14,107 bases of DNA from Ignavibacteria bacterium (GTDB lineage Bacteria > Elusimicrobiota > Endomicrobiia > PHAN01). The stretch lies in the NCBI GenBank assembly GCA_041694835.1, contig JBGFRZ010000051.1, positions 1 through 14,107 on the forward strand. Reading direction: 5' to 3'. Below are positions 1-14,107 of this stretch, one piece after another. A program made the position numbers and the translations under genes. Numbering within the stretch: position 1 is the first letter of the stretch; each line of letters starts with the position of its first letter. The notes beneath the pieces were generated by a model. It saw only the letters and a program-made list of their open reading frames with translations. It had not been told where the DNA came from and ran no database searches.

Positions 1-1
1 G

Positions 2-3000
2 ACGGCGTTTAGTTCAACAATAAGCGTATTGACGGAAAGTTTCCCGGTGATGTATCTTAAAATAGCTAATCCAGGATTTGAAATGTCGCCTGATTTGACT
101 GGTTGGACAAAGGAGGGCACAGCAGCTTCCATTGAGCGAAACAACACCATCAGGAGAACAGGAACATCCTCTTGTAGATTTGATAATCCGACAAGTGCCT
201 ATACAGGCAGAGGAATCGTTTCATCTACTTCAAGTGTTATAGCAGGTGTAACATACCAGGTCGGCGCATGGTTTTATGTAGCACAAGCAGGCGGAGTTAT
301 AGCAGATACCCAAATTCGCATAGGAATGAGATGGACAAACGTCTCAGGCGCCATAATTTACACAAGCACATCAACCGACTTAACACTTTCCGCATTTACA
401 ACCTGGCAAAGTGTAACATATTCTACAGTCGCTCCTTCGGATGCTGTCGGCGCGGTTATGACAATTCATGTCAAAGAAACGGCCGATAATAACAATGATG
501 TTTATGTTGATGATGTTTTTACCAGACCAGACACAATACCACCGGGCGCAATAACAAATTTGACAGCGGAAAAAGGCGTAAATCCCGGTGAAGTCAATCT
601 AACATGGACAGCCGTCGGTGATGACGGATATTCCGAGAATAACGGCGCTTCTGCCGGCTATATTTTAAGATACGCCACATATCCTTTGGTCGCTGCTTCG
701 TCGTGGACATGGTATAATTCGGCAGTAGAGTATTTCCAGCAGTGGCCAGTTGCCTCCGTTGGCGCTGTGGAGTTGAGAACCCTGTCGCTTGTGTCCGGTG
801 TTACGTATTATTTCCTGATAAGAACCCGGGACGCCGCAGGAAATGTATCTGCTTTTGATGTACGAGCCATAGATGCCCCGCAGGCGTCTGCCGTCGCAAG
901 AGAAGGGGTTAGGGCGGGTGTAGTTATAAACGAAGTCGCTCCCGACCAGACATCCACACAAGGTCACGATTTCATAGAATTATATAACCCTGGACCGGGG
1001 ACTCCCAACATATTTGGGTGGGAATTATTTGAATACAGCGCTCAGGACACATATCTTGAAAAGGTTGAGGGCAACTGGAACTTTCCTGCAAATTCGTATC
1101 TGGTGATAAGGTTTAATCAGACCAGACAGATGACTTCTCCGGTGCAAATCACTTCCAATTACTTTGAGTTATACACCAATAAAACCGGCATTGCTCAGAC
1201 CGACAATGTCATCATGATTTCTACCGGTGGGCCCAACTCCACCATTCTTGACGTGGTCTGTTTCGCCGACATGAGCGGCTCTCTTACAAATTCAACACGC
1301 TTGAGGGCCGCCTACAACATTGCTCTCTCAACAGGGCAGTGGTTCGGGCCCCTTGCCGACGGCACAAATGATTCGGTTGTAGAAAGTTATATGGCGTCAA
1401 CGCTTTATAACACATCTTCCGGCTGGGCGATAGCCAGAAACAATCTCTCTGCTGACGGCACTAATCCAAGTTATAGAGAATGGGCAATGAACTATACAAC
1501 GTCTCGCGGCGCGCTCAATACAGCATTTGACTCTGTGGCGCCGTCAGCTATAAGTAATCTGGTTGTTGTGGCGGGAGAGAACCGCGGCACAATGCGACTC
1601 ACATGGACGGCCGTCGGAGACGATAGCACAACTGGCACAGCCGCGGGGTATATTCTCAGAAGCCGTTCTGATTTGATGACCGTGGACAACTTCGACACCT
1701 CAGCAAATTACAGCTTTGCCTCTAAGGAAGGTCAGGGTGACACAGCTCGTTGGGTCCCGAGGGCAAGCGGTCAGCCGGAGTCGTATCTTGTTGGAGGTTT
1801 TTTTGCAGGCACGACATATTACATCGGACTAAGAGTACAGGACGAGCGACCGAACACATCCGCTGTCTCTAACATCGTCTCCACCATTGCCGCCAATGTC
1901 ATTGGCTCCAATGTCAGAATAAATGAAATCGCGCCTCTTACCCCCGGCAATGATTGGATAGAGTTTTACGGTGCTCGTGGTCCGGTAAATATAAACGGAT
2001 GGAAAATACTCGGAATAATAGCCGGCGGAACAAGCGAGGTTACATTAAAGACACTTCCCAATATAACTCTTCAGACGGGCGACTATCTTGTTTACAATTG
2101 CATCGATGGGACGGATGAGACCGACGCCACCGGCAGGGGTGCGAACGGTTACTGGGATGTTTTTGGAGCGGCGGACTTGCGTGGATTTGAAGGCGTTGTG
2201 GTGTTAGAAGATAACTTCGGAAACATTGTTGATTTCCTTGCATATTCTCAAGGGGTAGAGCTGTCGTGGGGACCGATATGGACAAACGCTGCCAACTGGC
2301 AGCAGTGGTCTCCTCCGACGGCGTCGGTGGGCAATGCCGCCGACTGGAGCGGTGGAACAGCAACTCATTCGCTCGGCAGAGATGGGTTCTCAACGGATAC
2401 CGACAACACATTGTCTCAGGCGAAAGTTGACTGGAAGATATTTGCCGTCCCGACAAAGGGCGTTCAGAACGACGATATTCCGCCTAGCGCGATAACAAAT
2501 CTCTCGGCTCTGGCAGACGCCAACGTGGAGGGGAAAATCACACTTACATGGACAGCGCCCGGTGACGATATTTATGTCGGCAACAACTTCGGCGGCTATT
2601 ACATAATCAAATACGCCACATTCTCCGTTTCCGTAGAGATGAGTTCCTGGACATGGTGGAACTCTATTTCAACGACAGTTGCGTCTGATGTCAACAGGGG
2701 CTGGGCGTTCAAGACGCCGTCGGCAGTCGGTGCGACGGAAACTCACGTGTTCACGAATCTCTATCCCGCTACGACTTATTATTTCGCCGTCCGCACGGTT
2801 GACGATATGTCTAACTGGTCGTCGTTGGATGTTCAGATAGGCGCAAACAACCCCGCCAATCAGGCGCAGGCGCTCGTCACAAATCTACCGCCTTCGGCTC
2901 CGACGGGAGTTGTCGCGGTTTCAAGCAACACCGCCGTTCTTTTGTCGTGGTCGGCTAACACCGAACTTGACTTAAAAGAATATCGCGTGTCGTCCAACAC

Positions 3001-4612
3001 GGTAAATAATTTTAACACCGCCACAGTCGTTGCGGTCGTCTCATCGGGGACGATTTCCATAAACGCCGGCGGACTCATAAACGGAGTCACTTACTATTTT
3101 TGGGTGCAATCGACAGACGTCTTCGGTATGCTCAGTTCAACCTCGTCCGTTGTTTGGGAGGTGCCGAGGATTCGTCCGCCGTCGGGAGTTGTTTCAAATC
3201 ACAGAGGAACTCATGTGGATATAAGTTGGACACATTCGCCAGACGTGGGTGCTGCGAATTTTGCAGGATATCTTATTTACCGCTCCACCGACCTTTCTAC
3301 CTTCTACCCTCTACTCTCTACTTTATTAAAGGGAACGACTCATCAAGACACAGCGGGCGTAGATGCGACCAAAACATATTATTACTTCCTGCGCTCCTCA
3401 GACACCGCGGGGACGATTAGTTATGCGACGGCGGTTTCTAGCGCAATTCCGGACAGCGTTCCGCCAACTATTGCTTTGATTGCGCCGGCTATCGTGGAAC
3501 TCGTAATTGAGATAAAAGGCGGTCAAATCGTTTTTGAGGCGGATGTTGCGGATTCGCAAGGGACTCCTTACATTTCCGGCGTCGCCACTGAGACGGTAAA
3601 AGTCAACTTTGTCGTTTCAGGAGTTACGACGACGCTTGTTCTTGACGGAATATCTAACATTACATATGTCGGCGGGACGAGAGTGCTTTCTGCCCGGTTT
3701 AGAAAATCCATAGACGCCCAAAGTGCAACTATAAGCCCTGCGCTTAAAGACATACTTACCACTGGTGGAACATTCTACTATTATATCACCGCCCGGGATG
3801 GCGTGGGCAACTCTGCCGTCGCGATGACTTTGCGCAAAATCATTGTCAATGCAGAGTCAATAACATCCGATCCCGTCGGCGCTGCATCTGGCGGCACTGT
3901 TTCATTGAGCGATGGCAACCCTGACGATGGCGAGACATCAATAGTAATTTCGCCCGGCGCACTTGAAAGGGACACAACGATTATCATAACGCAAAAAGAC
4001 CCGCAAAAAACAGCAGACGCCGTTCCGCTGGCAAATAGGGAACCATCGATACTGCTTGACAAAAATAACAGAATGCCTATTGCCATCTATGAATTCAGAC
4101 CGAAAGGCATGAGATTCAAGAAACCTGTCACACTCACGCTTTTATATCTTGAAAGAGATGGGAAACTCGTGAATATAGACGGCACCGAGATTTCGGGAGT
4201 CGATGAAAAGACACTAAAAATTTACTGGCACGACGGTTACGAGTGGCGTTATGTTGGCGGCACCAACGACACGGCGAAAAATACTGTCACAGCCAAAGTC
4301 AACCACTTTACGCTTTTCGCTTTATTTGCTTCAAGAGGACCTTCTGAAAAACCGACGGCGGCCGAGAAATTCATAACTCCTGCGACTGCCGACGGAATAA
4401 ACGACGCCCTTGTTTTTGACGGCTCGCCTGACGATTTCAAAGAAATTACGATTTATGACATCAACGGCAGGATTGTAAAAAAACTTGAGAACACAAACAG
4501 CTGGAACGGCAAAGATGAAAACGACAAGATTGTTGAAATTGGCGCATATATCTGGCGTGCCGTCTATATCAACGGAAAAGTCAATTACGGCACGGTGGTT
4601 GTTGCAAAATAG
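2..4612 (+). CDS. Giant secreted multidomain protein, 5'-truncated: CBM_4_9-like domain, FN3-like repeats alternating with lamin-tail domains, further FN3/Ig, ZU5-like region, and a C-terminal gliding-motility/T9SS type-B-like sorting domain
   Basis: The frame is open from base 2 (acg gcg ttt agt... TAFSSTISVL) into the 29..4612 ORF, so the true start is upstream of the window. Motifs: 'IANPGFE...GW...VYVDDV' (CBM-like); three 'D.xPP.AI.NL...LTWTAxGDD' FN3-like units; LTD 'VVINEV...DFIELYN' and 'VRINEI...DWIEFY'; C-terminal 'FITPATADGIND...TIYDINGRIVKKL...WNGKDENDKIVEIGAYIW'. Confidence 0.85.
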   Translation, partial: TAFSSTISVLTESFPVMYLKIANPGFEMSPDLTGWTKEGTAASIERNNTIRRTGTSSCRFDNPTSAYTGRGIVSSTSSVIAGVTYQVGAWFYVAQAGGVIADTQIRIGMRWTNVSGAIIYTSTSTDLTLSAFTTWQSVTYSTVAPSDAVGAVMTIHVKETADNNNDVYVDDVFTRPDTIPPGAITNLTAEKGVNPGEVNLTWTAVGDDGYSENNGASAGYILRYATYPLVAASSWTWYNSAVEYFQQWPVASVGAVELRTLSLVSGVTYYFLIRTRDAAGNVSAFDVRAIDAPQASAVAREGVRAGVVINEVAPDQTSTQGHDFIELYNPGPGTPNIFGWELFEYSAQDTYLEKVEGNWNFPANSYLVIRFNQTRQMTSPVQITSNYFELYTNKTGIAQTDNVIMISTGGPNSTILDVVCFADMSGSLTNSTRLRAAYNIALSTGQWFGPLADGTNDSVVESYMASTLYNTSSGWAIARNNLSADGTNPSYREWAMNYTTSRGALNTAFDSVAPSAISNLVVVAGENRGTMRLTWTAVGDDSTTGTAAGYILRSRSDLMTVDNFDTSANYSFASKEGQGDTARWVPRASGQPESYLVGGFFAGTTYYIGLRVQDERPNTSAVSNIVSTIAANVIGSNVRINEIAPLTPGNDWIEFYGARGPVNINGWKILGIIAGGTSEVTLKTLPNITLQTGDYLVYNCIDGTDETDATGRGANGYWDVFGAADLRGFEGVVVLEDNFGNIVDFLAYSQGVELSWGPIWTNAANWQQWSPPTASVGNAADWSGGTATHSLGRDGFSTDTDNTLSQAKVDWKIFAVPTKGVQNDDIPPSAITNLSALADANVEGKITLTWTAPGDDIYVGNNFGGYYIIKYATFSVSVEMSSWTWWNSISTTVASDVNRGWAFKTPSAVGATETHVFTNLYPATTYYFAVRTVDDMSNWSSLDVQIGANNPANQAQALVTNLPPSAPTGVVAVSSNTAVLLSWSANTELDLKEYRVSSNTVNNFNTATVVAVVSSGTISINAGGLINGVTYYFWVQSTDVFGMLSSTSSVVWEVPRIRPPSGVVSNHRGTHVDISWTHSPDVGAANFAGYLIYRSTDLSTFYPLLSTLLKGTTHQDTAGVDATKTYYYFLRSSDTAGTISYATAVSSAIPDSVPPTIALIAPAIVELVIEIKGGQIVFEADVADSQGTPYISGVATETVKVNFVVSGVTTTLVLDGISNITYVGGTRVLSARFRKSIDAQSATISPALKDILTTGGTFYYYITARDGVGNSAVAMTLRKIIVNAESITSDPVGAASGGTVSLSDGNPDDGETSIVISPGALERDTTIIITQKDPQKTADAVPLANREPSILLDKNNRMPIAIYEFRPKGMRFKKPVTLTLLYLERDGKLVNIDGTEISGVDEKTLKIYWHDGYEWRYVGGTNDTAKNTVTAKVNHFTLFALFASRGPSEKPTAAEKFITPATADGINDALVFDGSPDDFKEITIYDINGRIVKKLENTNSWNGKDENDKIVEIGAYIWRAVYINGKVNYGTVVVAK

Positions 4613-4618
4613 AAAGGC

Positions 4619-4668
4619 AGATACATGATGCAAGATACAGGTAGAGACAAATGTAGAAGGGTAGAAAA
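4619..4668 (+). repeat. Degenerate purine-rich short tandem repeats (AGATACA-TGATGCA-AGATACA; GTAGAAGG-GTAGAAAA)
   Basis: 7-mers at 4619-4639 and 8-mers at 4653-4668 fill the gap between the giant gene's stop and the MNT start. Confidence 0.5.
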
Positions 4669-4671
4669 GTA

Positions 4672-4962
4672 ATGAGTAATTATTTGGAAATATTAAGGCG
4701 GAAAATTACCGAATTATTTAAGGACGAAGACATACAAATATTTTTATTTGGTTCAAGAGCGCGCAACAACGCTTCAAATGTATCTGACATTGATATCGGA
4801 GTAATACCAAACACTGACTCGGCCAGAAAGAAACTCACGTTATTCAAGGGAAGCATAGAGGATTTGAATATACCTTATAAGATAGAGGTTGTAAATTTCA
4901 AGGAGGTCTCGCAAGAATTTAAGGAAGAAGCGCTCAAAAACAAGGTTGTATGGAAATACTAA
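4672..4962 (+). CDS. Minimal nucleotidyltransferase (MNT) antitoxin, MntA-like
   Basis: 96 aa with the GS-x10-DxD motif (LFGSRARNNASNVSDID). It overlaps the downstream HEPN gene by 13 nt. Confidence 0.9.
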   Translation: MSNYLEILRRKITELFKDEDIQIFLFGSRARNNASNVSDIDIGVIPNTDSARKKLTLFKGSIEDLNIPYKIEVVNFKEVSQEFKEEALKNKVVWKY

Positions 4963-5339
4963 AATTGCGATGCGACGATGCGCTCAAAGCGCTTGGCACA
5001 CTTGAAGAAATATTAAAAGAGCCGTATTCGGTTATAGTTCGCGATGCCGCCATACAAAGATTTGAATATACTTTCGAGGCATTGTGGAAATTTTTGAAAG
5101 AGTATCTGAAAGAGAAAGAAGGTGTTATATCCAATTCGCCGAAATCATGTTTTAGAGAGATTTTCTCGCTTGGTTTCATAACGGAAGATGAGACAATCGC
5201 GTATATGGAAATGACTGACACAAGGAATGAAACATCGCATACGTACAAGGAAGAAATGGCGAAAATAATTTATGATAAAATTGCTGGATATTTTACCTTG
5301 ATGAAAAATATTTTAGATAAAATAAAGGTAGAAAGATGA
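4950..5339 (+). CDS. HEPN-domain protein (HI0074 / nucleotidyltransferase substrate-binding family), putative RNase toxin
   Basis: 'RDAAIQRFEYTFEALWK', 'SPKSCFRE', and an intact Rx4HxY motif (RNETSHTY). It is paired with the MNT gene. Confidence 0.9.
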   Translation: MEILKLRCDDALKALGTLEEILKEPYSVIVRDAAIQRFEYTFEALWKFLKEYLKEKEGVISNSPKSCFREIFSLGFITEDETIAYMEMTDTRNETSHTYKEEMAKIIYDKIAGYFTLMKNILDKIKVER

Positions 5340-5548
5340 AAAAACGAAATATGAAAAAAATTTGGGCGAATGTATCGTCGTCATTTAATGAGTCTGAAAA
5401 ATTTGAAAAAAAGTATAATGCAAGTAAAACACCACGACAACTTTTGAGTGATATTCAGGTATGCAGAGAGCAGTATTATAAATTGAGAGGATGTCTTGAA
5501 GGTAGAAAAGGACTACGAAGAGTTTTTAAGATTGTTAAACAAACATAA
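5336..5548 (+). CDS. Small basic hypothetical protein, probable partner of the downstream nucleotidyltransferase
   Basis: ATGA overlap with the HEPN stop. The 'Y..SKTPRQLL..IQVCREQ' pattern resembles small ORFs found beside DUF6036-type NTases. The start could instead be ATG 5351. Confidence 0.6.
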   Translation: MKKRNMKKIWANVSSSFNESEKFEKKYNASKTPRQLLSDIQVCREQYYKLRGCLEGRKGLRRVFKIVKQT

Positions 5549-5936
5549 GGTCAAGTATTGCATAACCGGCTCTTTCGCCGTCGGTATTTATGGTTATGCG
5601 CGATATACAAAAGACATTGATATTTTAGTTGAGCCATCTGAGAAAAACGCTATAAGAATACTAAGAGCACTTAAAAATTTCGGATTTGGCGGAGTCGGAT
5701 TGAAGACGGGCGATTTTACAAAAAATGGAAATATAATTCAGTTGGGGTATGAACCCGTCAGAATAGACCTTATGACTGCAATAAGCGGTGCGGGTTTTAA
5801 TGAGGTTTGGAGAACGAAGAAAGAAATGTTTTTCGGTAAGACAAAAGCATTTTTCATAGGAAAGAAAGAATTGCTCAAAACAAAAAGAAAAACGGCACGA
5901 AAACAGGACTTGCTTGATATTTTGAAAATAAAATGA
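5496..5936 (+). CDS. Nucleotidyltransferase-fold protein (DUF6036-like)
   Basis: 'KYCITGSFAVGIYGYARYTKDIDILV' (G-x-x-A...G..R.T.DxD) and C-terminal 'K..TARKQDLLD'. TTG start with GAGAGGA about 5 nt upstream. Confidence 0.8.
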   Translation: MKVEKDYEEFLRLLNKHKVKYCITGSFAVGIYGYARYTKDIDILVEPSEKNAIRILRALKNFGFGGVGLKTGDFTKNGNIIQLGYEPVRIDLMTAISGAGFNEVWRTKKEMFFGKTKAFFIGKKELLKTKRKTARKQDLLDILKIK

Positions 5937-6997
5937 AAAAACTTACTAAATCAGTGATTAAGCAAATAGCGATTAAGCGATTAAGTGAAAAACACTATTT
6001 GCTATTTGCTATTCGCTATTTGCTATCCACTATTTGCTATTTGCTATTTACTACTTGCTATCTTTACGGCGCTTTTAAGGAAAACATCTGGACGGCTCGC
6101 ACTGCTGCGATGGGCGGGGCGTTTTCTGCCGTCTCCGATGATGTCTCGTCGACAATATTCAATCCCGCGGGACTCGCTCAGATTGAAAGAAACGAAGCCA
6201 ATTTTACCTACGCTCAGAAATTTTTGAATCTTCCCAATGTTCAAACGTCCAATATGAACGGTCTTTTTGGATATACAGTGCCGAAAATCGGAGCGTTCGG
6301 TCTGGGGTATCTCTCAAGCGGTGTATCTGATTTATACACAGAGCAATCCATTATTTTAACATACTCTGCGCCGCTTCATATCTTGCTCGGCGAAAAAACC
6401 GTGACCGTTGCCAGAAGAACAAAAGAATTTCCAATTTTACCCATTCCAATTTATGCGGGTTTAAATATAAAATATCTTTCTGTCGGATATAATCTGGACG
6501 AGAAAACTAAATTGAGGAGCGGCGGCGACCCTGTTTTTAAAGACGGGACTTCAAAAGGCGGAGTTGCGGTTGACATCGGATTTTTGGTTATGCCCCTTGA
6601 AAAACTCTCAGCGGCGCTTTCGGTGAAGAATCTTTTAACGCCAGATGTGGGACTTAAAATATCTGAAACTGTGCCTCTGGAGTTAACGCTCGGCGGTGGC
6701 TACAAGTTTGGGGATGCGGGAGTTTTTGAGGATTTGAAAGTTTCTTTGGATTTGTCGAACAGGATTCCGCAGGGCGCCTCTCCCGAGTTCAATTGGCGAT
6801 TTGGTGTAGAGTCATGGTTTAGCTATCACAGATATGCGGCGCGGCTCGGCCTCAACAATACCGAAATCGCTTTGGGCGGTGGAATAATTCAGAGCTTGGG
6901 TCATGTAGAGCTTCAGTTGGATTATTCATTTACCATGCCGATGCATCTTTCTGATAATTTTGGCTCTCACCGCCTCTCTTTGTCTACGCGTTTCTAA
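5933..6997 (+). CDS. PorV/PorQ/PorP-like outer-membrane beta-barrel (T9SS-associated, FadL-like superfamily)
   Basis: Signal peptide ending LYG/AF, then 'ARTAAMGGAFSAVSDD...FNPAGLAQ', alternating beta-strand patterns, and a C-terminal 'HRLSLSTRF' ending in Phe. Confidence 0.8.
   Translation: MKKLTKSVIKQIAIKRLSEKHYLLFAIRYLLSTICYLLFTTCYLYGAFKENIWTARTAAMGGAFSAVSDDVSSTIFNPAGLAQIERNEANFTYAQKFLNLPNVQTSNMNGLFGYTVPKIGAFGLGYLSSGVSDLYTEQSIILTYSAPLHILLGEKTVTVARRTKEFPILPIPIYAGLNIKYLSVGYNLDEKTKLRSGGDPVFKDGTSKGGVAVDIGFLVMPLEKLSAALSVKNLLTPDVGLKISETVPLELTLGGGYKFGDAGVFEDLKVSLDLSNRIPQGASPEFNWRFGVESWFSYHRYAARLGLNNTEIALGGGIIQSLGHVELQLDYSFTMPMHLSDNFGSHRLSLSTRF
5956..6064 (+). repeat. GATTAAGC 8-mer arm followed by ten CTATTTG-type heptamers inside the barrel's signal-peptide coding region
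   Basis: GATTAAG(C/T) at 5956, 5971 and 5979. Heptamers run 5995-6064. AGCAAATAGCGA (5961-5972) is the exact reverse complement of TCGCTATTTGCT (6013-6024). Confidence 0.9.
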
Positions 6998-7007
6998 CGG
7001 CTCTTCT

Positions 7008-7124
7008 CCAAATGTTGTTGTAACATTGGGTAAGGATTCTATGATGTGTAAAAACAAAGTATTTTCACTCATTCTCGTCCCGATAAATCGGGACTGCGAG
7101 GCAATCAAGTGTTCACACTTGATT
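7008..7124. repeat. Cluster of intergenic palindromes (REP-like or structured RNA)
   Basis: AATGTT/AACATT (7011-7027), GTCCCGAT-aa-ATCGGGAC (7077-7094), and AATCAAGTGT-tc-ACACTTGATT (7103-7124). Confidence 0.6.
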
Positions 7125-7208
7125 AAACCCGCTCAAACACTTTGTTTTTATACGCACAACAAAAAATGGAGAAGACACAATTTTACAAATGTGCAAATTT
7201 TGGAAATT

Positions 7209-7217
7209 TGATATAAT
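7209..7217 (+). promoter_or_regulatory. Extended -10 sigma70-type promoter element (TGnTATAAT) for the SpoVG-like gene
   Basis: TG-A-TATAAT at 7209-7217, about 45 nt upstream of ATG 7263, with RBS AAGGAGG at 7251-7257. Confidence 0.6.
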
Positions 7218-7262
7218 AAGTTAGGTCGCGTTCAGAAAAATCTCAAAATGAAGGAGGAAAAG

Positions 7263-7877
7263 ATGCGCAAATTTTTAAGTGCATTGGCAGTTTTGCTTGC
7301 CGCCAGTTTGTTTTCGTTTGCTCAGGTTAGCAAAGACATAGTTGTTACCGAAGTAGAAGTCGCCCCTGTCAGCGAAGGCGCCGTTAAGGGACTCGCCACG
7401 ATTGTGTTAAACAATGTTATTGAAATCAGCGAGATTCAGGTTTTGAAAGTCGGAGGAAGGACTTCCCTAAAATTTCCGGAGTACATCTCAAAAAAGGGTA
7501 AGGTCTATCCTCAGATAACTATCCACACGAAACAGGCCAACGACGCTATCGTAGAGGCTGTTGAGACGGGAATGCCGAGCGATGAAAAAGCGAAGGCGAT
7601 TTCATTCAAGGTGACGAAATTTTCAAGATTCACCAGGCCCTCGAAACTCAAAGTTTTTGCCGCGGTTATTTTCAACGATGCCGTGGAAGTGGAATGCAAG
7701 GTTATGGAAGGAAAAAGGGGGCCGTGGATTTCATGGCCGGCGAGAAAACCGGAAGAGGGCGGGAGATGGATACAGCAGGTAAAAATCAGGAACAAAGCCG
7801 TAAAAGACGCCATAGAAAAAACCCTTCTTGAGAGATACTCGAAGATGATTTCCGAGGGCGGCTCAGACGACGAATAA
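7263..7877 (+). CDS. Tandem SpoVG-like protein with an N-terminal Sec signal peptide
   Basis: Start moved to ATG 7263 because of the AAGGAGG RBS. 'MRKFLSALAVLLAASLFSFA/Q' is a signal peptide. Two SpoVG-like repeats follow: 'VKGLATIVLNN...IQVLKVGGRTSLKFPEY' and 'KLKVFAAVIFNDAVEVECKVMEGKRGPWISWPARK...AIEKTLLERY'. Confidence 0.75.
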   Translation: MRKFLSALAVLLAASLFSFAQVSKDIVVTEVEVAPVSEGAVKGLATIVLNNVIEISEIQVLKVGGRTSLKFPEYISKKGKVYPQITIHTKQANDAIVEAVETGMPSDEKAKAISFKVTKFSRFTRPSKLKVFAAVIFNDAVEVECKVMEGKRGPWISWPARKPEEGGRWIQQVKIRNKAVKDAIEKTLLERYSKMISEGGSDDE

Positions 7878-7982
7878 AACACACAAAAATATAGAGCACA
7901 AGCACAATTACAGAATAACGGAAGTTAATTGCCTCTTAATCTCTTTCCTGTTTTATTATCTTTTATCTTATGTAAATAAATT

Positions 7983-8012
7983 AAAAGCGGGGATAATCTC
8001 TCTGCTTTTTTT
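7983..8012 (+). terminator. Intrinsic terminator-like hairpin, possibly bidirectional
   Basis: AGCGGGGA (7986-7993) pairs with TCTCTGCT (7999-8006) using G-U pairs. It is preceded by an A-run and followed by a T7 run. Confidence 0.6.
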
Positions 8013-8020
8013 GTTATGAT

Positions 8021-8503
8021 ATGGATTACTATGAATTTTTTAAAAAGTTAAACGAAAAGAATGTCAAATATATCACAGTCGGCGGTCTTGCCGTAAATCT
8101 GCACGGTATACCACGTCTTACATACGACATAGACCTTATTGTTGAGATGAGCGATGAAAACATACAGGTTCTTATGAAATTATTGAACGAAATGGGATAT
8201 AAGCCAAAAATCCCCGTCAACATCTTGGATTTCGCAAATATGCAAAAAAGGAAAGAGTGGATTGAAAACAAAAATATGAAAGCATTTTGTCTTGTAAGCG
8301 ACAAGTTGGCCATAAGAGAGGTGGATATAGTCGTAAACACTCGGGTCAACTACGATTCTGCAAAAAAGAATGTCGTATTTTATGATTTGTATGACACAAA
8401 AATCGCGACTGTGGGCATCGACGACCTTATTAGAATGAAAAAAAACACAGGCAGAAAACAAGATGAAACGGATATAGAACATTTAAGAAGAATTAAAAAG
8501 TGA
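8021..8503 (+). CDS. Nucleotidyltransferase-fold protein (DUF6036-like), second copy
   Basis: 'KYITVGGLAVNLHGIPRLTYDIDLIV' and C-terminal 'DLIRMKKNTGRKQDETDIEHL'. Confidence 0.85.
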   Translation: MDYYEFFKKLNEKNVKYITVGGLAVNLHGIPRLTYDIDLIVEMSDENIQVLMKLLNEMGYKPKIPVNILDFANMQKRKEWIENKNMKAFCLVSDKLAIREVDIVVNTRVNYDSAKKNVVFYDLYDTKIATVGIDDLIRMKKNTGRKQDETDIEHLRRIKK

Positions 8504-8706
8504 AAAACTCGCATACGACAAAACCCGTTGAAAAAATCGAGGTCAAAGGCTTTTCTTATTATATTGGCGACGAAATGCTCAAAGAGTATAGTGCGCTCTC
8601 TGTGGAAAAAAAACTCGCGTGGCTACATTCCGCTAATGTATTTGAAAATGGATTAAGCGCGAAAGTCAGAATACTTCATGAGAAATTCAGAAAAGCGAAA
8701 ATGTAA
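8500..8706 (+). CDS. Small hypothetical protein coupled to the nucleotidyltransferase
   Basis: GTGA overlap with the upstream stop. 68 aa with the helical motif 'LKEYSALSVEKKLAWL'. Confidence 0.65.
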   Translation: MKNSHTTKPVEKIEVKGFSYYIGDEMLKEYSALSVEKKLAWLHSANVFENGLSAKVRILHEKFRKAKM

Positions 8707-9462
8707 TTGGGGACGGTCCTCAATTATCAGTATGGTTCTGTAAAATGTGGTAAAAAATGGGAAGATTAGCGAGATTTATTCCTGGAAATTCGTATTTTCA
8801 TGTTTTGTCACGCGGCAACAATCGGCAGAAAGTATTTTTTGACGTTTCAGATTATGAAAATTTCATAAAAATATTGGTGTTTTGCAAAGGACGTTTTTCA
8901 TGGCGCGTCATTCACTATGTATTGATGAGCAATCACTACCATCTGATTGTTTATAATGAAACGCCTAAAAATTTAAGTGACGGGGTAAAGATGTTGAATC
9001 AGAGTTATGTTAAATACTACCGAAAAAAATATCAGGGATGCGGACACCTTTGGCAAGATAGGTTCAAAAGTTTCGTGATAGAGGATGGCAGATATATCTT
9101 GGAATGCGGGAGGTATATAGAATTGAATCCCATCAATGCCGATATAATTGAACGTCCCGAAGATTACAAATATAGCAGTTATAGTTTTTACGCTTTTGGC
9201 AAGAAAAATTCGCTGATAGATTATAATCCGGAGTATTTGAGATTATCGGATGATTTTGAAAGAAGGCGGTTTATTTATCGTGAGTTTGTTCAAAATGGAT
9301 TAAAGGAAAGGCGTGGGATTGAGCGATATTTCCGGACAGGATTTTATGGCAGCGATGAGGGAAAAAGAAAATATGACACATTGGGATTGCGCTCCAGGAA
9401 TTTCAAGACAGGTCCCCGGTCACCAAGAAGCAGTAGTTGCCAATTGAGGACCGTCCCCAATT
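8705..9462 (+). mobile_element. RAYT-type element bounded by perfect 21-bp inverted repeats
   Basis: AATTGGGGACGGTCCTCAATT (8705-8725) and its exact reverse complement AATTGAGGACCGTCCCCAATT (9442-9462) enclose a Y1 HUH transposase. Each end is itself a near-perfect palindrome. Confidence 0.8.
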
Positions 9463-9467
9463 CCTGA
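8757..9467 (+). CDS. rayT: REP-associated tyrosine transposase (RAYT, Y1_Tnp/IS200-like HUH superfamily)
   Basis: 'YFHVLSRGNNRQKVF', HUH motif 'YVLMSNHYHL', 'HLWQDRFKS', catalytic Tyr region 'RYIELNP', and 'DYKYSSY'. Confidence 0.9.
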   Translation: MGRLARFIPGNSYFHVLSRGNNRQKVFFDVSDYENFIKILVFCKGRFSWRVIHYVLMSNHYHLIVYNETPKNLSDGVKMLNQSYVKYYRKKYQGCGHLWQDRFKSFVIEDGRYILECGRYIELNPINADIIERPEDYKYSSYSFYAFGKKNSLIDYNPEYLRLSDDFERRRFIYREFVQNGLKERRGIERYFRTGFYGSDEGKRKYDTLGLRSRNFKTGPRSPRSSSCQLRTVPNS

Positions 9468-9508
9468 CCAATTTCGCCAATTTCGATTAGAACCGTCGCA
9501 TTTTTTTT

Positions 9509-11068
9509 ATGAATTCTTTTGTAGTATCAATATTCGGTATCGCACTTACTCTGTTATTTTATTTCAGTGATTTGAGTGCGCAAGAGGTTTTATTAAGTGA
9601 GAATTTTGAGGGTGTTAGCGTCGGACAACTGCCTCCTGGATGGGCCAAATACGGCACAGGCAGTTTCGGCGTTGTCGACGCCGACCCGTCAAATCTCAAT
9701 AGAAAATCTCTGCGGATAAGCTCCAACACAATTTCCGACAAAACTTCGGTGTCCACAATTTACGTTTATTTCGTCATTCAGACGACGCCCGGCTACACTT
9801 ACAGTTTTTCATCGGATATTTACGATAATTCTGCCACCACATCCACTATTTCCATTTACTGGTATCCAACTGCGGACGGTTCGGGTTCCAATGTTGGCAT
9901 TGTAGAGAGCGATATGAGTGTCGACTCCGCAGTATCGTGGAGGAACCTGAATGTGAAAGACGATGCCCCATCCGGCGTCTATTCGGCAAAATTTCGCCTG
10001 AATTTCAAGGTCCCGCGGCCAGCTGGCGATTATTCTATTTTTTATGATAGTGTGACTGTGCTTGCCACTAAGGGTTTTATACCCGAAGATACAATCGGGT
10101 CACTTGACGCTATTATTACGGAAGTGGCGCCGTCTGAATCCCAGGACTGGATAGAATTTTTTGTGCTCGCGGATGGCAATACCTGCGGAATGAGAATCTA
10201 TGAAAACAAGGTGCCGGTTAAAAAACTGCAATGGCTGCCGAAGGGCTCTACTTATTATGTCGGAGCTGATGTTAAAAAAGGCGACTTCATTTTGCTTCGT
10301 TTTAACTCAAACGCTGATGATGAACGGAGTGTCAGGAACGGTGTAATAACTTTTCACACCACGGATTCCGGACTTACCGGCACGGACAACGTGGTGTCTC
10401 TGATGCGGAGCCCGACGAATTACGTCGATGTGTGCGCATATTCAAATTACGATGGTACCTTATCGGCTGACAATATACGAGAATTTGGCAATGCAATGAT
10501 TGCTGGCCTATGGATGCCTTCCATATCCACTGCCACGGCGACTAAATCAGAATTAGAAAATAACATGGTGGGTAAATGGACAGAAAAATCGGGGAGTGCC
10601 ATTGTAAGAAAAGTCAAAAATGTCGCGGGCAGCCGACTGCCTGTGCTCAATACCGATGTCGCCGCGTCTAAAGACGCTTGGGAAATAAAAACAACACAGA
10701 CGCCCGGCAGAGGATACACTTTTATCGAAATAGAACCCATTGCTCTAAAAATAAAAGGTCCAAATCCGTTTAACTCGCTCAAGCAGAAAGTTGAACTTAC
10801 TTTTAGCATAGGTGATAAAAGCATCAAAACCCTTCGGGTCTTTGACGTGAAAGGCAGGGAAATCAGACGTTTAATTGACCAGGACAAAAAATACGACGCT
10901 TCATCGCTTGGCGGCATAGGCGCCGATATAGTTTACTGGGACGGTAAGGATTCCGATGGCGACAGAGTCCCGACGGGAATATATATATTGCATCTTGAAG
11001 CGTATGATGCTACATCAGGTGAAACTTCTAAAACATTTGCAACAGTCGGGGTCTTCAGGGGAAAGTAA
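9509..11068 (+). CDS. Secreted CBM-like + lamin-tail-domain protein with a FlgD-Ig/T9SS-like C-terminal domain
   Basis: Signal peptide ending DLSA/Q; 'ENFE...PPGW...IFYDSV'; LTD 'IITEVAPSESQDWIEF'; C-terminal 'PNPFN...RVFDVKGREIRRL...YWDGKDSDGDRVPTGIYI'. Confidence 0.85.
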   Translation: MNSFVVSIFGIALTLLFYFSDLSAQEVLLSENFEGVSVGQLPPGWAKYGTGSFGVVDADPSNLNRKSLRISSNTISDKTSVSTIYVYFVIQTTPGYTYSFSSDIYDNSATTSTISIYWYPTADGSGSNVGIVESDMSVDSAVSWRNLNVKDDAPSGVYSAKFRLNFKVPRPAGDYSIFYDSVTVLATKGFIPEDTIGSLDAIITEVAPSESQDWIEFFVLADGNTCGMRIYENKVPVKKLQWLPKGSTYYVGADVKKGDFILLRFNSNADDERSVRNGVITFHTTDSGLTGTDNVVSLMRSPTNYVDVCAYSNYDGTLSADNIREFGNAMIAGLWMPSISTATATKSELENNMVGKWTEKSGSAIVRKVKNVAGSRLPVLNTDVAASKDAWEIKTTQTPGRGYTFIEIEPIALKIKGPNPFNSLKQKVELTFSIGDKSIKTLRVFDVKGREIRRLIDQDKKYDASSLGGIGADIVYWDGKDSDGDRVPTGIYILHLEAYDATSGETSKTFATVGVFRGK

Positions 11069-11072
11069 AAAT

Positions 11073-11253
11073 AGGTGAAGGTAAAGGTAGAGGTGGAAAG
11101 TTAAAAGCGAATAGTGAATTATGAATTCAGAATTATGAAAAACGACATTGGAAAACTTTTTTCATTCATCATTCATTATTCATTATTCAGCACCGCAAGG
11201 CGGTGCGGCTACTATTTGCTATTCGCTATTTGCTATTCGCTATTTGCTGTTCC
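11073..11253 (+). repeat. Nested repeat arms: (AGGTRR)x4, GAATT-type heptamers, inverted TTCATTA heptamers, a GC hairpin, and CTATT(T/C)G heptamers
   Basis: Hexamers 11073-11096; heptamers 11107-11141; TTCATCA/TTCATTA 11165-11192; GCACCGC-aag-GCGGTGC 11190-11206; five CTATT(T/C)G units 11212-11246. Confidence 0.85.
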
Positions 11254-12106
11254 CCGTCTATTCGCTCAGGCAAATATCAGCACCGGCATTGAAGTAATAG
11301 AGATCAATTTCGACGACGATATCGACGACGACGGCTTTGAATGGCTCAAACTACAAAACAGAACCGGCCGTTCCATAGATATTTCCGGATGGAGAGTCGT
11401 AGGAAAAACACTATCGCAAGCGCCCGGTTGGGGCGATATCAAAAACATCCCGCAAGGCGCTACCTTTGTTATTTCCGAGCCCGCTGTCGGTTTAAACAAT
11501 TTTGCCACAAGATATGGTTCATTTAAAAATACCAATAACTATCTTGCCATAGCCAGTGGTAATTTATCGCTCAGCAATACGGGCGGACGCATAACAATAT
11601 CATCGATGACATCGGGGGATATCCAGGATTTCAATTATTATCCCGTAGAAGAGAATTATTCCGTCGTGAAAATATCTTTTGACGCCGACGAAACATTGCG
11701 GTCTTCATGGAGAATTGGGACGCCTGGCGGGACGCCTTTTGAGGTTGGCGCTGTATCGACCGCCCCTGCTACGATTTTGCTTACCATTGACGAAAACACA
11801 AACCCGTTTAATCCCCATGTTTATCAATCTGTTGCCATTAACTTTGAATCGGATAGTTCCGCTGTGAAAAATTTGTATATAATTGATGTTACAGGAAAAG
11901 AAGTCGTGAGATTGGTTTCAAATGATATAACGTTTTATGGAGCTTCGCTTGCTGGTATAAATAAAGCCATACTATATTGGAACGGGAAAAATTTTGCCGG
12001 CGAGATAGTCCCCGTCGGTATTTATGTAGTGTGCTTTGAAACCGTCGATACGAACAAAAAAATCAACCGTCTTAAAAGGGTTGTTGTCGTCGGCAGACAA
12101 TTTTAA
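11114..12106 (+). CDS. Secreted lamin-tail-domain protein with a FlgD-Ig/T9SS-like C-terminal domain
   Basis: Repeat-encoded signal peptide ending RLFA/Q; LTD 'IEINFD...FEWLKLQN...IDISGWRV...LSNTGGRITI...GTPGG'; C-terminal 'TNPFNP...IIDVTGKEV...WNGKNFAGEIVPVGIY'. The start is GTG 11114 or ATG 11135. Confidence 0.8.
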   Translation: MNYEFRIMKNDIGKLFSFIIHYSLFSTARRCGYYLLFAICYSLFAVPRLFAQANISTGIEVIEINFDDDIDDDGFEWLKLQNRTGRSIDISGWRVVGKTLSQAPGWGDIKNIPQGATFVISEPAVGLNNFATRYGSFKNTNNYLAIASGNLSLSNTGGRITISSMTSGDIQDFNYYPVEENYSVVKISFDADETLRSSWRIGTPGGTPFEVGAVSTAPATILLTIDENTNPFNPHVYQSVAINFESDSSAVKNLYIIDVTGKEVVRLVSNDITFYGASLAGINKAILYWNGKNFAGEIVPVGIYVVCFETVDTNKKINRLKRVVVVGRQF

Positions 12107-12192
12107 CACACCCCCGCCCCCTCTTGATAGAGGGGAAAAAGACGCACTTGATATTGAATGTCAAATTCAACATAAATTTAGGGTGTGTTAAA
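12102..12192. repeat. 91-bp REPIN/MITE-like element with 12-bp terminal inverted repeats and an internal REP-like hairpin
   Basis: TTTAACACACCC (12102-12113) is the exact reverse complement of GGGTGTGTTAAA (12181-12192). Internal CCCCTCT-tgat-AGAGGGG at 12118-12135. Confidence 0.75.
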
Positions 12193-12204
12193 GAGGTTAA
12201 ATTT

Positions 12205-13998
12205 ATGAAAAAACTAATAATGCGCAAGAGCACAAGTGCACAAGAGCGCAAGGGACAAGACAATGCAGCAGAGCAGCAGAGCAGCAGAGCAGTGGCTCGT
12301 GGTTCGTGGTTCGTGGCTCGATTTCAACATCTCCCAGTCACCAGCCACCAGTCACCATCCACTATTTGCTATTCCCTACTGCCTATTGTCTATTGCCTAT
12401 TTTTAACTATTTCCTATTCCCTATTGCCTATTGCCTGTCTTTACGGTGCTTTCGAAGAAAAAATACCTTCCGCGAGAAACGCCGGTCTCTCAGGTGCAGC
12501 AGTTGCTTTGTCAAACGATTCCGATCTTATTTTTTACAACCCCGCATCGCTGGGGCAACTCCCCGGGGCGAGTTTTTCATTCTCTCATACATCGCTCTTT
12601 AATATATCCGATTTATCTTACATGGTTTTCACGGGGGCAGTTCCGACAAGAGCGCTTGGAAGTTTCGGTTTTGCGTATTCTCAGTTTGGTCCGGCAATTT
12701 ATAAAGAAACTGAGGTTGTCCTCTCGCACTCCTTTTCTTTGGGCAGAAAATTTCTTTTCGGCTATAACATAAAAAATCAGTCGGTGAATATTAAAAATTT
12801 CGGCTCGGCAAGCGGAATGGGTATAGATGTCGGCGTCTACAGCATCGTGCTCAATAATGTTGCGGCCGGATTTTCCGTCAAAAACTTAAACAACCCCACA
12901 CTTGGAGCGACGGCAGAAACGCTTCCGCAAAACTACAGAATCGGCATAACATATTTTCCCGAGTTGGGCATTGTTTTTCTTCTTGATATGAGCAAGGATA
13001 TTCTGGCGGATGAACTTTCATATCATGCCGGCGGAGAAATCAATATCACGAAAAACTTTATTTTCAGAGCGGGCACAAGAACAAATCCTGCCGGATTTTC
13101 TGCTGGTTTTGGCGTTGTTTTCAACGCTTTCAGATTAAACTACGCTATGCTCACTCACCCCGTCCTTGACGCTCAGCACTTCTTTACTCTCGGAGTGAGA
13201 TTCGGCCAGGAAGAAGTGGATGTGTCGCCCGGGCGTCGGCCGGGACGCCGCACAAGAAGAAGAACCGCCGACACAAGAGCGCGGGAAGACACCGACGAAG
13301 CGTTAAAGAGTTTGATAGTCAATATAAACACCGCTACGCTCGAAGAGTTAGACCAGATTCCCGGCGTCGGCGCTTTGACTGCCCAAAGAATTATTGACTA
13401 CCGTCAGGAAAGAGGACGGTTTGGCACAATCGAAGATCTGATGAATGTCCAGAGAATAACAAAAAAGACATTCGAAAAAATAAGGCCTTATATAACGGTT
13501 GAAGATGTAAAAAAGGCGCCGAAAGAGATTGCGCCACCTGAAGAAGTTGCACCGAAGCTCGTTCCGAAAGTTCCGGTTCAAAAGACAGAAGAGTTTCCCG
13601 ATGAACCCGAGGAAGAATCATCTGCCCCGGTTTTGCCTCCCGCTAAAGAAAAGAAAAAACCGCAGCCAATAAAAGTCGAGCCGGAAGTTGTTCCGGTTCT
13701 GGATGCTCCCGTTATTCCTGTTGTGCCCCCGGCACCTGCGCCAACGCCTTCAGCCGCGCCGGTCGGTGAAAAAGAAATTGAACCATCTCTCATCAGCGAT
13801 GACCGTTTGGATGTAAACTTAGCGACGGAGCAGGAGTTGGAAGTCGCTGGTTTTACATCTACTCAGGCAAAAAACATAATCAGATATAGAAAGAAGAGCG
13901 GAAATTTCACTTCCGTTGATAACCTGTTGAAAGTGCCCGGGGTTGACGCAAGAACGGTTGAAAGAGTGAGGGAATTGATAAAAGCAAATAGCAAATAG
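12205..13998 (+). CDS. comEA: PorV-like outer-membrane barrel fused to two ComEA-type helix-hairpin-helix DNA-binding domains
   Basis: Start moved to ATG 12205 (AAGAGG upstream) because the ORF-track start lies inside a palindromic element. 'SARNAGLSGAAVAL...YNPASL' is the barrel N-motif. HhH domains are 'VNINTATLEELDQIPGVGALTAQRIIDYRQERGRF' and 'LDVNLATEQEL...AKNIIRYRKKSGNFTSVDNLLKVPGV', separated by a Pro/Glu/Lys-rich linker. The symbol refers to the ComEA domains only. Confidence 0.8.
   Translation: MKKLIMRKSTSAQERKGQDNAAEQQSSRAVARGSWFVARFQHLPVTSHQSPSTICYSLLPIVYCLFLTISYSLLPIACLYGAFEEKIPSARNAGLSGAAVALSNDSDLIFYNPASLGQLPGASFSFSHTSLFNISDLSYMVFTGAVPTRALGSFGFAYSQFGPAIYKETEVVLSHSFSLGRKFLFGYNIKNQSVNIKNFGSASGMGIDVGVYSIVLNNVAAGFSVKNLNNPTLGATAETLPQNYRIGITYFPELGIVFLLDMSKDILADELSYHAGGEINITKNFIFRAGTRTNPAGFSAGFGVVFNAFRLNYAMLTHPVLDAQHFFTLGVRFGQEEVDVSPGRRPGRRTRRRTADTRAREDTDEALKSLIVNINTATLEELDQIPGVGALTAQRIIDYRQERGRFGTIEDLMNVQRITKKTFEKIRPYITVEDVKKAPKEIAPPEEVAPKLVPKVPVQKTEEFPDEPEEESSAPVLPPAKEKKKPQPIKVEPEVVPVLDAPVIPVVPPAPAPTPSAAPVGEKEIEPSLISDDRLDVNLATEQELEVAGFTSTQAKNIIRYRKKSGNFTSVDNLLKVPGVDARTVERVRELIKANSK
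12222..12441 (+). repeat. Mosaic of five tandem-repeat types within the N-terminal coding region
   Basis: GCRCAAGN x4 (12222-12253), GCAGCAGA x3 (12265-12288), GTGGYTC x4 (12292-12319), CCAKYCA x4 (12334-12361), and about 11 CTATTNN-type units (12362-12441). Confidence 0.9.
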
Positions 13999-14012
13999 CG
14001 AATAGCAAATAG
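13984..14012 (+). repeat. (GCRAATA)x4 heptamer arm, the reverse complement of the CTATTTG arrays
   Basis: gcaaata gcaaata gcgaata gcaaata g spans the ComEA-fusion stop codon and ends just before the next ATG. Confidence 0.9.
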
Positions 14013-14013
14013 T

Positions 14014-14107
14014 ATGAGGCCGCATAAAAATCTTAAAATTTGGGAAAAAGTGATGTTGATGATAGAAGAAATTTATCAGCACACTGGCGGTTTTCCGAGA
14101 GAAGAAG
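14014..14107 (+). CDS. Four-helix-bundle protein (23S rRNA intervening-sequence protein / Avd-like family), 3'-truncated
   Basis: Not in the ORF track. ATG 14014 gives MRPHKNLKIWEKVMLMIEEIYQHTGGFPREE, which matches the family N-terminus 'x(H/F)xxLxVWQKAMxLxxEIYxxTxxFPxEE'. Confidence 0.8.
   Translation, partial: MRPHKNLKIWEKVMLMIEEIYQHTGGFPREE

Follow-up and report, generated by a model that had tools for sequence, protein, structure and literature searches.

The stretch of DNA analysed here, referred to throughout as the window, comprises 14,107 nucleotides (positions 1 to 14,107, forward strand) of contig JBGFRZ010000051.1 in assembly GCA_041694835.1, from a bacterium deposited as Ignavibacteria and placed by GTDB in the Elusimicrobiota (Endomicrobiia; PHAN01). 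At 7263..7877 it carries a gene for a 204-residue protein, termed tandem SpoVG below, in which two domains of the SpoVG fold are predicted to follow one another behind a conserved export signal. The protein is a paralog distinct from canonical SpoVG, and its gene recurs among genes for envelope proteins. Because of the known activity of the fold, a basic residue doublet retained in domain 2, the basic charge of the protein, and a secreted nuclease and ComEA-type binders encoded nearby, we propose that it may be a nucleic-acid binder of the cell envelope that acts within a module for DNA capture, uptake or scavenging, a reading to which we give an even chance of being correct. The coding sequence and the features of its product are as follows.

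7263..7877, forward strand: tandem SpoVG coding sequence, 204 amino acids plus stop (ATG at 7263, stop at 7875-7877)
7263..7322, forward strand: predicted Sec/signal peptidase I signal peptide, residues 1-20, with cleavage after S-F-A (hydropathy and the -3/-1 rule)
7332..7577, forward strand: predicted SpoVG-fold domain 1, residues about 24-105 (Pfam, N-terminal half model, Foldseek, hhalign)
7593..7859, forward strand: predicted SpoVG-fold domain 2, residues about 111-199 (Pfam, VIA, hhalign)
7851..7874, forward strand: flexible acidic C-terminal tail (...EGGSDDE), with a predicted local distance difference test score (pLDDT) below 50 at residues 201-204

Two predicted SpoVG-fold domains in a single chain

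An earlier note on this DNA, made from the sequence alone, described two SpoVG-like repeats in one chain and expected two matches to the Pfam SpoVG family. Two were obtained: PF04026 matches the 204-residue protein in two stretches (E 2.6e-13, 50.3 bits against a cut-off of 29.6), the best of which, residues 119-193, lies inside domain 2, and a six-frame search of the genome gave stretches at 7344-7556 (24.6 bits) and 7617-7841 (30.1 bits). The score against the NCBIfam equivalog for the septation regulator SpoVG (NF009749) is 36.1 bits, below its cut-off of 108.

An AlphaFold2 model of the whole chain, built with 23 homologs, has a mean pLDDT of 89.6 and a predicted template modelling score of 0.81, and runs twice through the order strand-strand-strand-strand(-strand)-helix, at residues 28-102 and 115-199. 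Foldseek comparison of the whole model with the PDB placed SpoVG chains (2ia9, 2i9x, 2i9z) at nine of the top ten ranks with a probability of 1.00, at E-values of 6e-3 to 2e-2 that miss the tool's 0.001 line despite this probability. In VIA-align, residues 111-204 aligned with 2ia9_A at Z 8.8, with a root-mean-square deviation (rmsd) of 2.9 over 93 residues, and the next unrelated chain followed at Z 3.9. The whole-chain VIA list covered the C-terminal half only, and the N-terminal half was modelled separately from 12 sequences (pLDDT 90.2). This model had a single clear match among 48,161 representative chains, 2i9z_A (Z 11.4, rmsd 2.3 over 79 residues; next Z 5.7), and its top ten Foldseek matches were all SpoVG, with a probability of 1.00. 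Since the whole-chain and N-terminal models each match SpoVG structures, both halves are predicted to adopt the SpoVG fold. The earlier note had looked to structure prediction to decide the matter, and had named the lack of any match to the SpoVG fold as the outcome that would count against it; the fold was found in each half, with SpoVG crystal structures as the sole clear match (Z 8.8 and 11.4).

At the level of profiles, hhalign matched the C-terminal half to canonical SpoVGs of the same phylum with a probability of 97.7% (E 2.3e-12, 30% identity) and the N-terminal half with a probability of 87% (E 4.1e-6, 16% identity). Comparison of one half with the other by the same method was weak (E 1.2e-3, probability 19%, 22% identity), so the case for an internal duplication rests mainly on the fold and on the match of each half to SpoVG; on this combined profile and model evidence, the two domains are best described as the product of an old internal duplication. 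The suggestion that they form a single-chain pseudo-dimer fits the compact and confident whole-chain model. A single-sequence phmmer search of the PDB sequences returned no SpoVG at E <= 1, the family profile reached 2i9x at E 0.0033 in the same sequences, and the ESM Atlas yielded just the protein's own SpoVG cluster together with unnamed Elusimicrobiota clusters. The architecture of this open reading frame is not a chance arrangement, because 60 homolog clusters at E <= 1e-3 have all of it in common and the family profile, described below, has 179 matches. The source databases name the homologs either 'septation protein SpoVG family protein' or 'hypothetical protein'.

A conserved export signal

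The chain begins with Met-Arg-Lys, followed by a hydrophobic stretch of 16 residues, S-F-A and then Gln. Met-Arg-Lys ahead of a hydrophobic stretch that ends in S-F-A/Q is the arrangement typical of Sec signal peptides that signal peptidase I cleaves. In the AlphaFold2 model the segment is a low-confidence helix (residues 2-16). The N-terminus had been read in the earlier note as a Sec signal peptide, with homologs lacking it named as evidence to the contrary; we find instead that the signal is conserved in the homologs, in the following numbers.

Close homologs of at least 195 residues (58 proteins): hydrophobic segment in 58, preceding Lys or Arg in 56, -3/-1 site in 58
Wider representatives of 180-260 residues (118 proteins): hydrophobic segment in 108, preceding Lys or Arg in 101, -3/-1 site in 105
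Copies from 20 picked genomes across the phylum (21 proteins): hydrophobic segment in 21

The signal-like segment, with its positive N-terminus and small-residue cleavage motif, persists down to about 25-30% identity. The ten wider representatives without a hydrophobic segment mostly resemble truncated gene calls, and a loose lipobox pattern is present in 10 of the 118, several of these being doubtful. The canonical SpoVGs of the same phylum have no signal (12 of 12) and begin directly at the first strand of the domain.

Basic charge, DNA-binding residues and the acidic tail

The mature chain of about 20 kDa contains 30 Lys and Arg residues against 25 Asp and Glu, with an isoelectric point of 9.2, in agreement with its earlier description as rich in Lys and Arg. 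The family is similarly basic, with a median isoelectric point of 9.4 for its mature members and values above 8 in 107 of 116.

According to passages of PMC3688583, DNA binding depends essentially on residues K50/R51 in the SpoVG of Staphylococcus aureus and on R53/R54 in that of Borrelia burgdorferi, and this basic doublet adjoins a helix that determines specificity. In domain 2 of the tandem protein the doublet is Arg161-Lys162, where the canonical M-P-S-R-K is aligned with W-P-A-R-K; Arg161 is kept in at least 90% of 23 aligned homologs, and the domain retains the signature L-K-x-F-A and G-P-W-x-x-W-P-A-R-K. In domain 1 the canonical M-P-S-R-K is aligned with F-P-E-Y-I. Here Tyr74 and the motif F-P-x-Y-x-S-K are invariant, and Lys77 and Lys78 lie three residues past the Tyr-Ile pair. 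The two domains are thus not equivalent, since the doublet is retained in domain 2 and replaced in domain 1.

The acidic tail (SDDE) pointed out in the earlier note is present and is disordered in the model; it is not a family-wide trait, as it occurs in all 58 close homologs and in 37 of 116 wider representatives. The last residue is aromatic in 47 of the 58 close homologs, and the SDDE end of the window protein has no aromatic residue.

A paralog of canonical SpoVG

The family profile was searched against 1.84 billion representative proteins with a threshold of E <= 1e-10, and returned 179 proteins, most of them 185-230 residues long and matched from end to end. SpoVG matches of any kind were seen in 176 of 201 sampled genomes of the phylum, and matches to the tandem form (E <= 1e-10) in 88. 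Its distribution centres on the class to which the window belongs, and the tandem form was found in none of the 58 genomes searched from one large family of the phylum. In all five genomes checked, canonical SpoVG (98-117 bits) and the tandem form are present together, and the tandem form is a paralog distinct from the canonical protein. The window's genome, which is 97% complete, and those of two relatives in its family gave weak tandem-type SpoVG matches only. In one genus with genomes of about 1.0-1.4 Mb, the tandem form is present in 21 of 30 genomes and canonical SpoVG is missing.

Longer proteins with more than one SpoVG unit were also observed (P0196, P0061, P0064, P0065 and P0087). In P0196, a protein of 388 residues, four canonical-like repeats of SpoVG score 331 bits and the N-terminus is not signal-like, and several proteins of about 390 residues with signal-like N-termini have two matches each to the tandem profile. 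Three loci (L036, L072 and L106) each contain two adjacent tandem SpoVG genes; as the copies fall in different sub-clades of a quick tree, they suggest an older gene duplication. Metagenome-assembled genomes (MAGs) recorded as Clostridia or Bacillota (L006-L012 and related metagenome loci) contain the locus together with several outer-membrane barrel genes, and their tandem SpoVG proteins nest within Elusimicrobiota diversity in the same tree. These MAGs may have been given the wrong label or the wrong bin, or may have acquired the locus by transfer.

Gene start and flanking signals

The following signals flank the coding sequence.

7209..7217, forward strand: extended -10-like element TGaTATAAT, 46 bases before the start codon, read from the sequence
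7251..7257, forward strand: Shine-Dalgarno sequence AAGGAGG, 5 bases before the ATG at 7263, read from the sequence
7983..8009, forward strand: terminator-like hairpin followed by a T run, downstream of the coding sequence

With a Shine-Dalgarno sequence, an extended -10 element and a downstream hairpin with a T run, the tandem SpoVG gene looks like a separate transcription unit. The strong promoter and ribosome-binding site attributed to it earlier are borne out as far as the canonical AAGGAGG and the perfect extended -10 are concerned; no convincing -35 accompanies TGaTATAAT, and the site is missing from the output of a consensus promoter scan because that scan demands a -35 match. An upstream ATG at 7248 was considered as the start codon and is disfavoured, as the homologs in the alignment start at the Met equivalent to 7263.

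Gene neighbourhoods in the family

Loci were gathered from species genomes (14), from metagenome contigs (61) and by picking across the phylum sample (20); the scan of metagenome loci used an alignment of the closer homologs, and reaches the closer subfamily only. Neighbouring open reading frames were clustered by blastp single linkage and representatives were named with Pfam. The counts given here describe the data and are not a test, because related genomes are not independent and the picked loci are not a random sample. Among 55 non-redundant loci, the genes adjoining tandem SpoVG were distributed as follows, with LTD standing for lamin-tail domain.

Directly upstream, 22 of 53: small PLD-family protein (about 187 amino acids)
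Directly upstream, 10 of 53: PorV-like barrel of the same similarity cluster as the window's 5933..6997
Directly downstream, 25 of 48: LTD-type cluster (LTD with FlgD_ig/sorting-type C-terminal domain)
Directly downstream, 6 of 48: Mfd

A recurring gene order begins with a phosphate transporter, a PhoU-like protein, two nucleoside phosphorylases, a Clp1-like kinase, a HAD phosphatase and PLD, passes through tandem SpoVG, and continues with an LTD protein, a PorV-like barrel, a 690-residue helix-hairpin-helix (HhH) protein and a FadL-like barrel. In five non-redundant loci (L008, L010, L061, L069 and, from an earlier clustering, L011) this order is followed further downstream by ComEC, and a ComEC-cluster gene (blastp cluster c11) is present in 6 of the 55 non-redundant loci. 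The PLD, LTD, PorV-like, HhH and FadL-like proteins have signal-like N-termini, and the Clp1-like kinase and HAD phosphatase have none. In the window's subfamily, a gene for a four-helix protein resembling the '23S rRNA intervening sequence protein' or bAvd lies between the LTD and PorV-like genes in 5 of the 55 loci (for example L003:5852-6217 and L004:10987-11460).

When neighbours were counted by domain, at least one of PLD, LTD, PorV-like and HhH was found within 7 kb of the gene in 40 of 70 non-redundant loci. This envelope module recurs in differing gene orders in several families of the phylum and in the Clostridia-labelled MAGs. A maximum-likelihood tree, made in a quick version and used solely to follow the spread of the envelope context, places this context mostly in one supported clade of 43 rows, whose members include the window, three other families of the phylum and the Clostridia-labelled MAGs; it is also found outside this clade. 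A second context, with paired diguanylate cyclases, lies mostly on deeper, long branches.

An HhH protein is encoded within 7 kb of tandem SpoVG in 12 of 33 non-redundant loci with at least 3 kb of sequence on both sides, in several gene orders. The earlier note had suggested that the protein works with the ComEA fusion of the window, and the genomic link behind this idea is common but not universal, because many relatives sit in other contexts (GGDEF pairs, mfd, pth).

The window's own neighbourhood

The envelope genes around tandem SpoVG in the window are listed here.

5933..6997, forward strand: PorV/PorQ-family-like outer-membrane barrel (NCBIfam PorV_fam, E 5.3e-17, 62.4 bits, under the cut-off of 90)
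11114..12106, forward strand: LTD protein of 330 amino acids with a signal-like N-terminus (Pfam LTD, E 3.1e-6, 28 bits, under the cut-off of 34.3)
12124..13998, forward strand: PorV-like barrel fused to two ComEA-type HhH domains, 624 amino acids, with the barrel at residues about 115-360

The gene order of the window is a giant surface protein, a PorV-like barrel, tandem SpoVG, LTD proteins and the PorV-ComEA fusion. In the fusion protein Pfam HHH_3 matches two stretches (E 2e-38), the NCBIfam comEA repeat region scores 114 bits against a cut-off of 53.1, and PorV_fam scores 66.6 bits. Relatives of this protein occur as a barrel and a 690-residue HhH protein encoded by separate adjacent genes, and an alternative fusion in L004 joins a PorP/SprF-like domain, TPR and HhH. 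The LTD protein at 11114..12106 clusters by blastp with the LTD+FlgD_ig proteins encoded directly downstream of tandem SpoVG in related loci. The giant surface protein (2-4612) is more than 1,500 residues long, runs off the start of the window and ends in a region resembling a FlgD_ig/sorting-type C-terminal domain; LTD proteins from related loci fall into its cluster.

Two regions, 4672-5936 and 8021-9467, break up the envelope module with pairs of Polbeta and NTase_sub_bind genes (nucleotidyltransferase/HEPN-type), two DUF6036-like nucleotidyltransferases and a homolog of IS200-like Y1 transposases. A relative from the same family (L107) has the window's gene order minus the inserted nucleotidyltransferase pair and the IS200-like gene between SpoVG and LTD. 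With Tandem Repeats Finder, 6 to 10 copies of the 7-base unit CTATTTG or its variants were detected in arrays at 5995-6061, 11212-11252 and 12369-12443, inside the N-terminal coding regions of the PorV-like, 330-residue LTD and PorV-ComEA proteins, where they encode repeated peptides of the I-C-Y-L-L-F type; the tandem SpoVG gene contains no array of this type. The window's genome encodes ComEC. Its ComEC and PLD genes are in unrelated housekeeping surroundings, and the PLD genes sit on contigs other than the window's.

Relation to known systems

Both tandem domains have the predicted fold of canonical SpoVG (PF04026; 2ia9, 2i9x, 2i9z), the family of DNA/RNA-binding regulators from Bacillus, Staphylococcus, Listeria and Borrelia. 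Like these proteins, the tandem form is small and basic, and its domain 2 is 30% identical at the profile level, with L-K-x-F-A and P-[AS]-R-K shared. A canonical SpoVG is a single cytoplasmic domain of about 90-130 residues, whereas the tandem form has two domains in 204 residues and an export signal; its domain 1 is without the basic doublet, its equivalog score is well under the cut-off (36.1 bits against 108), and it is a separate, coexisting paralog encoded among envelope genes rather than in the neighbourhood of a cytoplasmic regulator. Judged by sequence and modelled fold, the tandem protein is within the SpoVG superfamily, and it is outside the canonical family in domain number, predicted location and equivalog score.

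By analogy with ComEA, the periplasmic or membrane-anchored DNA receptor of competence, tandem SpoVG might likewise hold incoming DNA in the periplasm; it is a small protein with an export signal, and its gene lies next to genes for HhH proteins of the ComEA type. The predicted fold is a different one, without helix-hairpin-helix, and no match to the HHH family (PF12836) was found in the tandem SpoVG protein at E <= 0.1, whereas the neighbouring 624-residue protein has it. Like single-stranded DNA-binding protein (SSB), with which the earlier note compared the acidic tail, the protein combines a basic body of nucleic-acid-binding type with a disordered acidic tail. SSB tips typically end in an aromatic residue. 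Unlike SSB, most distant members of the tandem SpoVG family have no such tail (it is present in 37 of 116), and the tail of the window protein is without the aromatic. No SSB family match was found in the protein at E <= 0.1, nor is there an OB fold, the SpoVG fold accounting for both domains.

Proposed function of the tandem SpoVG protein

Our favoured reading is that of a nucleic-acid binder of the cell envelope. We propose that the Sec signal peptide is cleaved as the protein is exported across the inner membrane; the predicted Sec export would therefore place its action in the periplasm or cell envelope of the diderm Elusimicrobiota host. The two SpoVG-fold domains are predicted to pack into one compact body, in which domain 2, the conservative SpoVG domain, would supply the Arg-Lys pair that in characterised SpoVGs contacts the DNA backbone, so that nucleic acid would be bound outside the cytoplasm. 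It would act within a conserved gene module of the envelope that comprises the secreted PLD-type nuclease, the LTD surface proteins with their sorting-type C-terminal domain, the PorV-like barrels, the ComEA-type HhH proteins and the FadL-like barrel, and that frequently has genes for ComEC, nucleoside phosphorylases and a phosphate transporter in its vicinity. Such a module may catch extracellular DNA and hand it on for uptake or breakdown. From these features we infer nucleic-acid binding, a periplasmic rather than surface location and a role in DNA uptake or scavenging.

Several observations weigh against this reading. The export signals were called by a rule of thumb, hydropathy combined with the -3/-1 rule. 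In domain 1, F-P-E-Y-I stands in place of M-P-S-R-K, with the DNA-binding doublet replaced by Tyr-Ile. The context of PLD, LTD, PorV-like or HhH genes is missing from 30 of the 70 non-redundant loci, so that the neighbourhood analysis of signal-bearing homologs proposed in the earlier note found envelope and DNA-handling genes for part of the family only; of the 33 loci flanked by 3 kb or more on each side, 15 have the context. A stricter domain search detects LTD in 19 of 70 loci, fewer than the blastp single-linkage cluster, and the 20 extra loci, one or two per family, were picked by hand and are not random. Elsewhere tandem SpoVG stands beside mfd or after pth-thrS-infC, and nine loci (L093-L098 and L108-L110), all in genomes of the window's class, have two membrane GGDEF genes directly downstream. 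Finally, retention of the gene in genomes of about 1.0-1.4 Mb hints at an envelope role more basic than DNA scavenging.

The main alternative, which we consider somewhat unlikely, is that the exported SpoVG fold has ceased to bind nucleic acid and acts as an envelope adaptor or signalling partner. As an adaptor it could bind another polyanion or a protein ligand, such as a PorV-like barrel or a sorting-domain cargo; as a signalling partner it could pass an envelope signal to membrane diguanylate cyclases, some of which are controlled by small periplasmic proteins. The nine GGDEF loci argue for the latter version: the paired genes (for example L094:6855-10156) are polytopic, with three to four predicted helices each and frames that often overlap, the first cyclase has a GAF domain in each of the three loci scanned, and in one further locus (L111) a PilZ protein adjoins tandem SpoVG. 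The loss of the DNA-binding doublet from domain 1, the retention of the gene in reduced genomes without canonical SpoVG, and the frequent direct neighbourhood of a PorV-like barrel are also in keeping with such a role. However, the predicted loops of the cyclases outside the membrane are very short, and therefore offer little periplasmic surface for a partner. The SpoVG signature and basic doublet are nearly unchanged in domain 2, the family is strongly basic, and a nuclease and DNA binders of the ComEA type belong to the context that is most widespread, all of which favour nucleic-acid binding.

A further possibility is that tandem SpoVG is a dedicated partner of a secreted PLD-family nuclease, presenting its substrate or restraining it in the periplasm. 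A PLD-type protein with its own signal peptide and a length of about 187 residues is encoded immediately upstream in 22 of 53 non-redundant loci; in L104, from another family, a two-domain PLD protein with a sorting-type C-terminal domain is likewise encoded directly upstream. Yet no PLD gene lies beside the SpoVG gene in the window or its closest relatives, and the PLD proteins of the window's genome are encoded on other contigs in unrelated contexts; we consider this explanation improbable. We regard it as very improbable that the protein is an ordinary cytoplasmic regulator of the SpoVG type whose hydrophobic N-terminus is either artefactual or an anchor that faces inwards. The window's genome has no other SpoVG, and some relatives lie beside mfd or pth, the neighbourhood of canonical spoVG in Bacillus. 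Against this, the signal-like segment is conserved down to about 25-30% identity, some members have a loose lipobox pattern in its place (10 of 118, several of them doubtful), and a canonical SpoVG without a signal is usually present in the same genome (five of five).

The proposal of an envelope nucleic-acid binder can be extended, more tentatively, to a system. Tandem SpoVG could be the periplasmic DNA-holding part of an undescribed outer-membrane system for DNA capture and import in the Elusimicrobiota and related diderm lineages, although we think it rather doubtful that the full scheme is correct. In such a system PorV-like barrels would tether the LTD surface proteins, ComEA domains would form part of barrel fusions, and DNA would reach ComEC and the salvage of nucleosides and phosphate through the action of the secreted PLD nuclease.

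In the full-text literature we found no published work on a secreted, periplasmic or tandem SpoVG, subscription journals being outside this coverage. The literature treats SpoVG as a cytoplasmic DNA/RNA-binding regulator, and an exported, internally duplicated paralog would carry the fold to the cell envelope. To our knowledge the fold is otherwise known only as a cytoplasmic regulator; if the proposed import system is real, the SpoVG fold would also serve as a nucleic-acid receptor outside the cytoplasm. The tandem form is present in roughly two fifths of the sampled Elusimicrobiota genomes and is the sole SpoVG in some of them, and its recurrent company makes it a testable candidate for the capture or use of extracellular DNA by these poorly studied and mostly uncultured diderm bacteria.

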